From a virus (Duplodnaviria > Heunggongvirae > Uroviricota > Caudoviricetes), in IMG/VR virus record IMGVR_UViG_2693429518_000023: 10,738 nt of DNA; one strand, given 5' to 3'. The number at the start of each line of letters is the position of its first letter. The first letter of the stretch is position 1. The notes under the pieces were generated by a model. The model saw nothing but the letters and a program-made list of their open reading frames with translations. It was not told the origin of the DNA and did no database searches. The position numbers were made by a program, and so were the translations under genes. Positions 7,325-9,114 of the stretch are shown in pieces.

Positions 7325-8095
7325 ATGGAAACTGTATTGCATGCACTGAAAGCGATGGGAAAAGCCAATTCTGTTGAACTGGCGGCGCGGCTTGATATCA
7401 GCCGTGAAGAAGTTCTTAACGAACTGTGGGAACTCAAAAAAAATGGCGTTGTTGATAAAACGGGTCACACCTGGTTTCTGGCTGTCGAAGGTGAAGCCGG
7501 GGTAACCGAAGGGCAGGCACTACAACCTGAAGCGCCGGATGTGGTAACCGAAGAGGTCGCTCCAAAAGTTACCGCAGACATGATGGTTGAGTTTATCGGT
7601 CAGGATGGTGCTAAAACGTGTGAGGAACTGGCGGGTAAGTTCGGCGTCAGTACTCGCAAGGTTGCTTCCACGCTGGCGGTGGTAACCGCAACGGGGCGGC
7701 TGGCACGCGTTAATCAGAACGGTAAATTTCGTTACTGCATGTCGGGGGGTAATTTACCAGCAGATCCGAAAGCCGCGCCGGTAACGAAAAATGATGGTAA
7801 GGCCTTTCCTCAGCCAGCAGGTGCTGCGTTACCAGTCCGGGAAGCCGCAACACAGGAAGAAATTAAAACAGAAACTGTGGCGGACATTGTGCAGCCGTTG
7901 CCATCGTTTACCGAAACGCAAGCAGATGAGCTGATTTTTCCGTCCCTGCGCAGGGCAAACCTGGCGCTGCGCAGGGCGAAAAGTGATGTTCAGAAGTGGG
8001 AGCGAGTCTGCGCCGCGCTGCGGGAGCTGAACAAGCACCGGGATATTGTTCGACAGATTACTGATTCTTCCCGCCGTGTTGTATCGGAAAAGTGA
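7325..8095 (+). CDS. Hypothetical phage protein, 256 aa, with two N-terminal winged-helix-like segments and a coiled-coil C-terminus
   Basis: ATG 7325 with GAGGTAAA RBS. Intact ORF packed tightly after the DnaC-like stop. No recognisable catalytic motif. Confidence 0.75.
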   Translation: METVLHALKAMGKANSVELAARLDISREEVLNELWELKKNGVVDKTGHTWFLAVEGEAGVTEGQALQPEAPDVVTEEVAPKVTADMMVEFIGQDGAKTCEELAGKFGVSTRKVASTLAVVTATGRLARVNQNGKFRYCMSGGNLPADPKAAPVTKNDGKAFPQPAGAALPVREAATQEEIKTETVADIVQPLPSFTETQADELIFPSLRRANLALRRAKSDVQKWERVCAALRELNKHRDIVRQITDSSRRVVSEK

Positions 8096-8110
8096 TAGCC
8101 GGAGGCGCTT

Positions 8111-8506
8111 ATGGCGAAACCTTTTACACACGAACAGCGTGAAGAACTGAAGGCCCGAATTATCGGGCTGGTACGCAAAAATGAACGCATGACGATATCA
8201 CAACTGGAGAGAGCGACGGGAGCAGGCTGGCATTCAGTCAGACGTTGCCTTGTGGATGTACTGGCTTGTGGCGATTTATACATGCCCGGTAAATACGGTG
8301 TTTTTACATCAGAACAGGTGTATCGCGTATGGCGTAAGGCTGCGGAGAAAGCAACCGACCAGACATTGATTCGAAAGTTACCAGACGGAGAAATACGCCG
8401 CTACGACAGACAACAGAACATAATCTGTGGCGAGTGCCGGAAGAGTGAAGTTATGCTGCGTGTACTGGCGTTCTATCAGGGCAATTTTCAGGAGGCGGTA
8501 CTGTGA
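8111..8506 (+). CDS. Hypothetical phage protein, 131 aa, HTH-like N-terminus
   Basis: GGAGG 5 nt upstream of ATG 8111, 15 nt after the previous stop. Confidence 0.7.
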   Translation: MAKPFTHEQREELKARIIGLVRKNERMTISQLERATGAGWHSVRRCLVDVLACGDLYMPGKYGVFTSEQVYRVWRKAAEKATDQTLIRKLPDGEIRRYDRQQNIICGECRKSEVMLRVLAFYQGNFQEAVL

Positions 8507-8562
8507 GTGAATTAGCTATCAGGCTTCAATTGTCGCTGGCATTCGCATCAAAGGAGAATGAG

Positions 8563-9114
8563 ATGACCACTTTTACAAAAGAGCAGTTAATCAGTCATGT
8601 TAGTGAAAATGTAAAGGCGATGAAATTTGCAGTAAAACAGACAGCATTCAAAAATTCTCTCGAGGCAATTGAGTTGGATTTAGCACTGGCCCTTGTTGCT
8701 CAGGCTTCGCTGGAAGCAGAGCCCGTGCTTTATATGAATCGATTTACCGGAAAGACATTCTCACTGGAAGAGCAACCCGGTGCTGATAAGGAACCGGAAA
8801 TATACGTGCCGCTATATGCTGCCCCGCCAGACAGCGCCGCCATGCTTCAGGCTGGAAACTTTCGGGAAAAAAAGGGTTCGTCAACCAACTATCCGGTAAC
8901 TCTGGATGATTGGATAAGCTGTAGTGAGCGAATGCCGGATGACGGTCAGCACGTAATTATTTTATGTGATGGCGCATTCGTTCTTTATGCGCAATATCGA
9001 GACGGTGAGTTTTTTGATGTAGTCCGTGATGGTGATGAATTTTTCGAAACACAGAGCCGCAATGTAACCGACTGGATGCCGCTACCAGAACCGCCGCAGG
9101 AGGTGCGCCAATGA
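8563..9114 (+). CDS. Phage protein with C-terminal DUF551-like domain, 183 aa from ATG 8563
   Basis: AAGGAG 6 nt upstream of ATG 8563. C-terminal MPDDGQHVIILCDGAFVLYAQYRDGEFFD...WMPLPEPP resembles DUF551 (by recollection). Track start GTG 8503 overlaps the previous stop and is the alternative. Confidence 0.7.
   Translation: MTTFTKEQLISHVSENVKAMKFAVKQTAFKNSLEAIELDLALALVAQASLEAEPVLYMNRFTGKTFSLEEQPGADKEPEIYVPLYAAPPDSAAMLQAGNFREKKGSSTNYPVTLDDWISCSERMPDDGQHVIILCDGAFVLYAQYRDGEFFDVVRDGDEFFETQSRNVTDWMPLPEPPQEVRQ

Follow-up and report, generated by a model that had tools for sequence, protein, structure and literature searches.

The three genes analysed here lie side by side on the plus strand of a 10,738-nucleotide (nt) stretch of viral DNA (IMG/VR record IMGVR_UViG_2693429518_000023; the whole stretch is called the window below) and are designated genes 1, 2 and 3 in their order on the strand (Table 1). 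Homology and gene order identify the window as the left half of a prophage of Escherichia coli that is lambdoid and Rac-like (Rac/CP-933P type), and the three-gene block as the ren/nin-region segment of its early-right operon. Within this block, a conserved pair, consisting of gene 1 (DUF1627) and gene 2 (DUF977), could be distinguished by comparison of related loci from a separate gene 3 (DUF551), and the block is not a uniform three-gene module. These family assignments and the pair-plus-cargo architecture are held to be practically certain. That a ren/nin segment made of a Ren-like pair plus cargo is the best overall explanation of the block is put forward with moderate confidence, and a Ren-like anti-exclusion mechanism for the pair is proposed tentatively. 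A preliminary description of the window had stated that the function of the block could not be inferred, and this proved too pessimistic, with gene 2 assigned as a homologue of the lambda Ren protein and gene 1 as the full-length form of YdaW.

Gene 2 was identified as a distant homologue of lambda Ren by profile, pairwise and motif comparison. It matched the Pfam family PF06163 (DUF977) over its full length (243.1 bits against a cut-off of 22.1; E = 9.4e-73) and the PHROG family phrog_142, named "Ren-like exclusion protein" (E = 1.7e-43), which contains lambda Ren (NP_040633), and BLASTP of gene 2 against lambda Ren gave E = 2e-6. Both proteins carry at the C-terminus the motif N..(I/V)..ECRxSxxMxRVLAxY, and nine of its positions (N103, E108, C109, R110, S112, M115, R117, V118 and L119 in the numbering of gene 2) were invariant in four DUF977 allele types and lambda Ren. 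Additionally, each begins with a winged-helix-type segment, each is basic, with an isoelectric point (pI) of 9.5 for gene 2 and 9.9 for Ren, and each stands at the end of a cluster of replication genes, on the pR transcript in lambda and presumably on a pR-type transcript in the window. Application of the DUF977 profile to 1.84 billion representatives yielded only 141 clusters, many of them fragments; a Ren-like protein of 96 amino acids (aa), P0480, was recovered among them (E = 3.7e-5), and the Ren C-terminal motif was present in the distant representatives too. At the same time, the two proteins differ in several respects. Gene 2 has 131 aa and Ren 96 aa, the extra residues of gene 2 forming an N-terminal helix (MAKxFTxEQREELK) and an insert of about 30 aa between the winged helix and the motif; a DUF1627 gene separates the helicase loader from gene 2 in the window, whereas ren directly follows P in lambda; and lambda carries rexAB, which the prophage of the window does not.

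The winged helix of DUF977 was predicted with pLDDT (predicted local distance difference test) values of 87–90 in an AlphaFold2 (AF2) model of the related protein P0034. Among DUF977 alleles, the N-terminal helix and the C-terminal motif were conserved, and the presumed recognition-helix region varied by allele type. Two 190-aa proteins found with the DUF977 profile, P0470 and P0490, appear by eye to carry two winged-helix-like segments in succession ahead of the Ren C-terminal motif, as though a Ren tail had been attached to a DUF1627-like N-terminal half, and a further protein, P0442, looks like a DUF1627/DUF977 deletion chimera. The proteins P0034 and P0080 had been considered as natural fusions of genes 1 and 2, and were set aside as read-through and frameshifted forms from metagenome assemblies.

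Gene 1 matched PF07789 (DUF1627) with 331.6 bits against a cut-off of 28.1 (E = 7.5e-100, aa 91–245) and phrog_630 with E = 1.6e-131, and the YdaW protein of the Rac prophage of E. coli K-12 (b1361) aligned to aa 1–154 of gene 1 with 58% identity (E = 2e-58). In YdaW (186 aa), the region corresponding to about aa 155–256 of gene 1 is gone, the conserved C-terminal helix included; in this comparison, K-12 YdaW is a truncated DUF1627 protein and gene 1 is the full-length form, and a longer form of YdaW in O55:H7 has been noted previously (PMC9308461). The two genes also have the same setting, each directly behind a DnaC-like gene (ydaV in Rac) and downstream of ydaS-ydaT-ydaU-type genes. According to the annotation, no DUF977 gene follows ydaW in Rac, which is consistent with the Rac deletion, whereas the window prophage has one. 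The idea that YdaW is itself a DUF977 homologue was dropped, YdaW having no similarity to gene 2 and matching gene 1.

Weak helix-turn-helix (HTH) matches were obtained for two separate parts of gene 1, namely, aa 3–52 (HTH_11, DeoR, ArsR and CARF-associated HTH) and aa 87–134 (HTH_PafC and FeoC in Pfam). The second part weakly resembles the Ren/DUF977 winged helix, as suggested by a match of the "Ren-like" phrog_142 to aa 86–137 (E = 4.6e-6) and by an hhalign comparison of DUF1627 with DUF977 that placed aa 75–127 of the former onto 6–57 of the latter (E = 2.6e-4, probability 42%). Tandem paralogy of the two families was considered, with MAFFT placing DUF977 on aa 85–250 of DUF1627, and was rejected, hhalign backing the winged-helix segment alone, and weakly, and leaving the C-terminal resemblance unsupported.

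The arrangement of gene 1 was modelled on P0034, a natural read-through form with a DUF977 part that is 86% identical to gene 1. The AF2 model (mean pLDDT 58) predicted a winged helix at aa 1–43 (helices 4–11, 16–23 and 27–39; pLDDT 71–81), an acidic disordered linker at aa 44–80 and a disordered region at aa 139–205, both of low pLDDT, a second winged helix at aa 81–138 (pLDDT 72–80) and a single long helix at aa 201–256 (pLDDT 50–65). This long helix is the best-conserved part of the DUF1627 family (LRRAKxxVQKWERVCAALRELNKHRD, with the invariant alignment columns falling within 207–245) and possibly serves in oligomerisation or partner binding. Foldseek comparison of the model with the PDB returned only generic winged helices, none at E ≤ 0.001, with likenesses to MarR/GntR/IclR regulators and to the ScpB/FtsK-gamma DNA binders; in BFVD, the five matches at E ≤ 0.001 were unnamed, with TM-scores of at most 0.24, and the named ones were generic winged-helix proteins. 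YdaW has been catalogued as a predicted, uncharacterised transcription factor of the MarR type (PMC4797297, PMC9308461). This label was not adopted for gene 1: no MarR model of Pfam was matched at E ≤ 0.1, all HTH matches stayed under their cut-offs, the lone signal was a weak match to phrog_1687 (E = 2.8e-6), the Foldseek matches to MarR proteins had E > 0.02, and the AF2 model has instead two separate winged helices with disordered linkers.

The winged-helix N-termini that the preliminary description had seen in two of the proteins were thus recovered, weakly by HTH matches and by the AF2 model in gene 1 and by a confident AF2 prediction in gene 2, and its remark on the DUF551-like end of the third protein was confirmed as well. 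The structure prediction and structural search proposed there gave winged helices, disordered linkers and a long helix, with generic winged-helix proteins or no significant match in the fold searches, and the proposed searches with hidden Markov models gave DUF1627, DUF977 and DUF551 in Pfam. In PADLOC-DB, only weak HTH-part matches to CARF/Csa3/CasR (best E = 1.2e-5) and mad1 (E = 0.0048) were obtained, and none for gene 3. No enzyme family was matched by the three proteins in Pfam and NCBIfam scans, no NCBIfam family was matched by genes 2 and 3, and sequence searches of solved structures gave no match for genes 1 and 2 and noise only for gene 3; the earlier statement that catalytic motifs are lacking agrees with these results. 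Homology to structural or housekeeping replication proteins, which had been named as the alternative, was not found, none of the three being a structural or essential replication protein.

The evidence for a pair came from synteny. Loci in IMG/VR were seeded on gene 1 and on gene 2, using for each the best 80 of about 590 hits, and the window proteins were mapped onto them; these loci are mostly E. coli prophages and not independent samples, and the counts that follow are descriptive only. Of 77 loci seeded on DUF1627, 73 had a DUF977 gene no more than 60 nt behind it, as a rule at a constant 18 nt, even though the DUF977 allele was less than 70% identical to that of the window in 59 of the 73, and a DnaC-like gene was directly upstream of DUF1627 in only 45 of 79. 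The DUF977-seeded loci had DUF1627 directly upstream in 54 of 69 cases, a DnaC-like gene directly upstream without DUF1627 in eight, and neither in seven; one of these seven (L148) has a loader of the lambda-P type directly before DUF977, which is the P-ren arrangement of lambda. DUF977 is accordingly described, from gene order, as the terminal gene of the replication cluster, and DUF1627 as an optional gene that is almost never found without DUF977. The allele types of DUF1627 and DUF977 reassort freely, and the DUF977 type does not follow the replication-module type.

In species-representative genomes, DUF977 relatives were found in only 22 loci, comprising Escherichia/Shigella, a few probably mis-binned metagenome contigs and distant Enterobacteriaceae versions, the latter at 24–28% identity in Enterobacter, Leclercia, Silvania and Pseudocitrobacter. 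In eight of the nine closer loci (at least 47% identity) with upstream sequence, a DnaC-like or O-like gene stood directly before DUF977, and in the ninth, from E. albertii, DUF1627 did; for several of the distant Enterobacteriaceae loci, no replication gene was recognised alongside with the query set used. DUF977 was also seen in four metagenome bins assigned to Collinsella, Veillonella and Oxalobacter (L166, L168, L170 and L183). The Veillonella locus (L168) is flanked by YdaT, O-like and hok genes, the other three gave the DUF977 match only, and mis-binning of Enterobacteriaceae prophage contigs probably accounts for all four. Outside Escherichia, the three families are almost absent, the top matches being close relatives, and deep, diverse alignments for AF2 were unattainable.

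Gene 3 behaved differently from the pair. It matched PF04448 (DUF551; 73.2 bits, cut-off 22, E = 3.1e-20) and phrog_60 (E = 3.5e-41), and it consists of a helical N-terminal part, a linker and the C-terminal DUF551 domain. The protein is acidic (pI 4.5), with a net charge of −11 on the DUF551 domain; its own AF2 model had a mean pLDDT of 48.5, with moderate confidence in the five-stranded DUF551 domain only. A match to polyubiquitin (E = 9e-6) was discarded as repeat-inflated noise made of four repeats of about 6 bits each. Related open reading frames (ORFs) share conserved junctions (MTTFTKEQL, ALASLEAEP, AMLQAGNFRENKGSSTNNFREISETSTN, GWISCSERMP and HWMPLPEPPQEV), between which the N-terminal, middle and DUF551-core segments are swapped. 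By this pattern, gene 3 is a domain mosaic and interchangeable nin-region cargo.

The synteny data bear directly on the possibility that the three genes form one dedicated three-component defence or counter-defence system that works only as a unit, the strongest form of the module suggested in the preliminary description. Tight packing on one strand without internal signals, and conservation of the block at 99.8% or more in 381 E. coli genomes, which hold at least 80% of it, speak for such a system. However, a gene 3 of the window type directly followed DUF977 in only 49 of 142 loci, other cargo taking its place in 93, and the distance from DUF977 to hok ranged from 1.1 to 4.5 kb; moreover, gene 3 is itself a mosaic, no GenBank phage record contained at least 80% of the block, and PADLOC gave the weak HTH matches alone. 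Because of the synteny data, a three-component system is largely refuted and is considered very improbable. The three-gene block of the preliminary description is corrected to this extent, genes 1 and 2 being a conserved pair and gene 3 interchangeable cargo.

As to its relatives, gene 3 shares the PF04448/IPR007539 signature with YfdS of the K-12 prophage CPS-53 and with the C-terminal domain of variant 2 (V2) of the Stx-phage Ea22 protein, although BLASTP of gene 3 against YfdS gave no alignment. DUF551 has been described as a portable domain of lambdoid prophage accessory proteins (PMC10834534, PMC4776307) and forms, in Ea22 variant 2 of Stx phages, a C-terminal domain that is likewise called portable and is acidic (PMC10834534). 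An acidic DUF551 domain, like the Ea22 C-terminal domains, is present in gene 3; the protein differs in having its own N-terminal module and in lying in the nin region, other members lying in the exo-xis region or beside yfdQR. YfdS has been linked to oxidative-stress sensitivity and, together with yfdQR in multicopy, inhibits replication initiation (PMC3105296, PMC4776307); these published DUF551 phenotypes concern other members of the family and not gene 3.

The layout of the block was as the preliminary description had given it, with three tightly packed genes of 256, 131 and 183 aa, good ribosome-binding sites, and an accessory position, identified here as the ren/nin position of a lambdoid prophage, between the replication genes and hok. 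The Shine-Dalgarno (SD) sequences read from the DNA are GAGG (7311–7314), 10 nt 5' of ATG 7325, for gene 1, GGAGG (8101–8105), 5 nt 5' of ATG 8111, for gene 2, and AAGGAG (8551–8556), 6 nt 5' of ATG 8563, for gene 3. Gene 3 has an alternative start at GTG 8503, which overlaps the stop of gene 2, has its own SD sequence (AGGAGG, 8490–8495) 7 nt upstream and would give 203 aa. ATG 8563 was preferred because it is the start used in RefSeq, and the relatives of gene 3 behind other upstream genes likewise start with MTT(F/I)T. Gaps of 25 nt separate the DnaC-like stop from gene 1, 15 nt gene 1 from gene 2, and 56 nt gene 2 from ATG 8563, and simple sequence scans revealed neither promoter-like nor plus-strand terminator-like sites within the block. 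A conserved 27-aa hydrophobic ORF, outside the block of the preliminary description, adjoins the 3' end of gene 3 and is apparently translationally coupled to it: its SD sequence (AGGAGG, 9098–9103) falls inside the invariant PPQEV codons of DUF551 proteins, and about 95 related loci have a 27-aa ORF with the ATGA overlap after their cargo gene, whatever that gene is. RefSeq NZ_AP018488 carries no annotation for this ORF.

The three ORFs were recognised as real genes, not chance ORFs, by Pfam scores far over the cut-offs and, for genes 1 and 2, by the ratio of nonsynonymous to synonymous substitution rates (dN/dS). Against diverged alleles, up to a synonymous distance (dS) of about 2, this ratio was 0.38–0.54 for gene 1 and 0.17–0.29 for gene 2; the gene 3 comparisons contained one or two synonymous changes and were uninformative. 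These values also bear on whether the genes are no more than remnants of a cryptic prophage, decaying and without function. In the window, the DnaC-like loader gene just upstream has an amber codon (TAG at 6751–6753, codon 65), where O157:H7 strain PV15-279 has CAG; the same TAG occurs in another IMG/VR locus (L005). The prophage of the window is, on account of this codon, probably replication-defective. Gene 3 has a 33-bp in-frame deletion (8880–8890) that leaves it 11 linker residues (NNFREISETST) short of the common 194-aa form, its dN/dS is near 1 on very few substitutions, and the K-12 ydaW gene is itself truncated, all of which would agree with decay. Nevertheless, the three reading frames are all intact, genes 1 and 2 are under purifying selection, the pair is held at its 18-nt spacing across diverged alleles, and the gene 3 deletion is in frame and falls in the inter-domain linker, between two STN repeats. 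The selection results make decay alone an unlikely explanation for genes 1 and 2, and for the block as a whole it is regarded as improbable.

The tentative anti-exclusion role leans on what has been published for the two relatives. In lambda, ren is transcribed from pR together with O and P, and the known phenotype of Ren is escape from Rex exclusion. The gene was reportedly named by Toothman and Herskowitz in 1980 after resistance to Rex exclusion, and Thomason and Court are said to have described in 2022 that RexAB-dependent phenotypes are relieved by Ren. In two-hybrid assays, both O and Ren were partners of the Rex proteins (bioRxiv 10.1101/2021.04.19.439022), and a yeast two-hybrid map contained a single RexB-Ren hit (PMC3224144). 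For YdaW, overexpression placed ydaW among the prophage genes that block RcaT, the toxin of retron-Sen2 (bioRxiv 10.1101/2020.06.22.160242; PMC11951105), and deletion of ydaW resulted in less early biofilm (PMC3105296); both phenotypes belong to the truncated K-12 form, gene 1 being full-length. Functional literature under the DUF names and the Pfam/InterPro accessions amounted to almost nothing. Because gene 2 is related to Ren and gene 1 to YdaW, a reported blocker of RcaT, the anti-defence idea of the preliminary description has indirect, homology-based support.

On this basis, the following course of events is proposed. The three genes would be co-transcribed with the O-like and DnaC-like genes from a pR-type promoter on induction or infection, as indicated by the short gaps and the lack of internal promoter- or terminator-like sites. 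The products of genes 1 and 2, small non-enzymatic proteins, would act by binding and not by catalysis, their ligand being another protein or DNA in or close to the phage genome as it replicates; the winged-helix folds as the only folds found, the lack of enzyme families and the basic character of gene 2 and Ren point this way. In this way, the pair may prevent exclusion or toxin systems resident in the cell from aborting the replication and lytic growth of the phage. Retron toxins and Rex-like systems are candidate targets, and the prophage's own PaaA2-ParE2 module is a possible one. For gene 3, the most likely role would be that of an acidic adaptor binding other proteins to modulate some process of the host or of the phage.

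Several observations weigh against a Ren-like anti-exclusion role. Gene 2 is distantly related to Ren, with 29% identity in an alignment of 87 columns that contains gaps, and since the prophage lacks rexAB, a Rex-specific role is impossible here. The ydaW result comes from an overexpression screen of the truncated K-12 protein, in the available text of which individual validation is not stated (bioRxiv 10.1101/2020.06.22.160242). The AF2 model, moderately confident overall, is silent on partners, and the non-independence of the loci limits the weight of the synteny counts. The free reassortment of DUF1627 and DUF977 alleles likewise counts against this role and gives no support for a specific physical contact between their variable parts. 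Finally, the statement of Thomason et al. that ren is "likely involved in DNA replication" (bioRxiv 10.1101/2021.04.19.439022) fits equally well an alternative in which genes 1 and 2 are winged-helix DNA-binding accessory factors of replication or transcription without a role in defence.

With the phage origin, early promoters or the loader/helicase complex as their targets, such accessory factors would tune replication or the choice between lysis and lysogeny. This explanation, which does not exclude the Ren-like one, fits position and charge equally well: DUF977 regularly comes after the replication genes, directly or behind DUF1627, whatever the loader type, and gene 2 is basic, as are the second winged helix and the C-terminal helix of gene 1. 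The fold likenesses to regulators and DNA binders, the listing of YdaW among predicted E. coli transcription factors and the reported interaction of Rex with O as well as Ren can be read in the same direction. At the same time, ren is a non-essential gene of lambda (so listed in PMC10695390), neither P-lethality nor replicative killing required Ren (PMC3640518), the DUF977 allele type does not follow the replication-module type, and neither gene 1 nor gene 2 reached the cut-off of any Pfam regulator family. Repeated binding sites or a DNA target did not turn up, in an analysis that included no search aimed at such sites. Accessory factors without a defence role are the main alternative and are considered somewhat unlikely.

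A more specific version of the Ren-like reading is that DUF1627-DUF977 is a dedicated two-protein counter-defence unit tied to the replication module of Rac-like prophages. In such a unit, the Ren-like protein would disarm one abortive-infection toxin and the YdaW-like protein another (Rex-type channels, retron RcaT-type toxins or the prophage's own PaaA2-ParE2), suicide systems triggered by replication would then fail to fire when replication starts, and the varying recognition-helix region of DUF977 would mirror an arms race with the targets. This version is speculative and rated as unlikely.

The other features of the window are given in Table 1. In the immunity region (3901–4827, minus strand), a PaaR2-like repressor gene is followed by PaaA2 and ParE2, which together make up a three-component toxin-antitoxin module. 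In lambda, rexA-rexB lie downstream of cI, and the corresponding place in this prophage is occupied by PaaA2-ParE2; the likeness is a parallel only. The DicF antisense RNA adjoins the exonuclease gene and a dicB-like region.

Table 1 Features of the window and of the three-gene block (positions in the window)
Feature	Position	Strand	Remarks
Integrase fragment and excisionase	left end of window
3'-5' exonuclease gene	1101–2549	−
DicF antisense RNA	2565–2616	−	Rfam, 76.7 bits, above gathering score
ParE2	3901–4275	−	PF05016
PaaA2	4181–4426	−	PF21217
cI/PaaR2-like repressor	4393–4827	−
Cro-like gene	4843–5145	+
YdaT	5142–5567	+
O-like initiator	5575–6552	+
DnaC-like helicase loader	6559–7299	+	phrog_50, E = 2.2e-65; NCBIfam PRK12377, E = 2e-101
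Gene 1	7325–8095	+	256 aa; DUF1627/YdaW family
Gene 1, predicted winged helix 1 (aa 1–53)	7325–7483	+	weak HTH matches; AF2
Gene 1, predicted winged helix 2 (aa 81–138)	7565–7738	+	pI 9.5; HTH matches; AF2
Gene 1, predicted long C-terminal helix (aa 201–256)	7925–8092	+	basic, pI 10.8; AF2
Gene 2	8111–8506	+	131 aa; DUF977
Gene 2, Ren-family C-terminal motif (aa 103–122)	8417–8476	+	NIICGECRKSEVMLRVLAFY
Gene 3	8563–9114	+	183 aa from ATG 8563; C-terminal DUF551
Gene 3, DUF551 domain (aa 117–179)	8911–9099	+	small, strongly acidic, all-beta
27-aa hydrophobic ORF	9111–9194	+	MNWPEAFAITGVAMAIAFLVYVICRWG; ATG 9111 overlaps gene 3 stop 9112–9114 (ATGA)
Second small hydrophobic ORF	9230–9334	+	between gene 3 and hok locus, like 9111–9194
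sok/hokD	9411–9736	+
sok antitoxin RNA	9411–9586	+	Rfam, 113.5 bits, above gathering score; overlaps hokD start
hokD	9578–9736	+

The block is 99.8–99.9% identical to sequences in E. coli O157:H7, O55:H7 and related genomes, where RefSeq annotates its genes as "DUF1627 domain-containing protein", "DUF977 family protein" and "DUF551 domain-containing protein". Among 5426 complete E. coli genomes, 3444 matched some part of it, and 2488 contained DNA similar to genes 1 and 2 together, at up to eight places per genome. The three genes are thus already known, as annotated members of catalogued DUF families and common E. coli prophage genes, and as found they matter little, being present in nearly half or more of the complete genomes. 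What is added here is the link between DUF977 and Ren, the recognition of YdaW as a truncated DUF1627 protein, the asymmetric linkage of DUF1627 to DUF977 and the mosaicism of gene 3.

Through these additions, a more precise hypothesis can be framed for three orphan families that are very common; two of them, DUF977 and DUF1627, have one independent published link each to the neutralisation of an abortive-infection system. If the proposed role is true, an abundant gene pair of enterohaemorrhagic E. coli prophages would be counter-defence factors tied to phage replication, and the 45-year-old question of the role of Ren would gain a wider set of natural variants.

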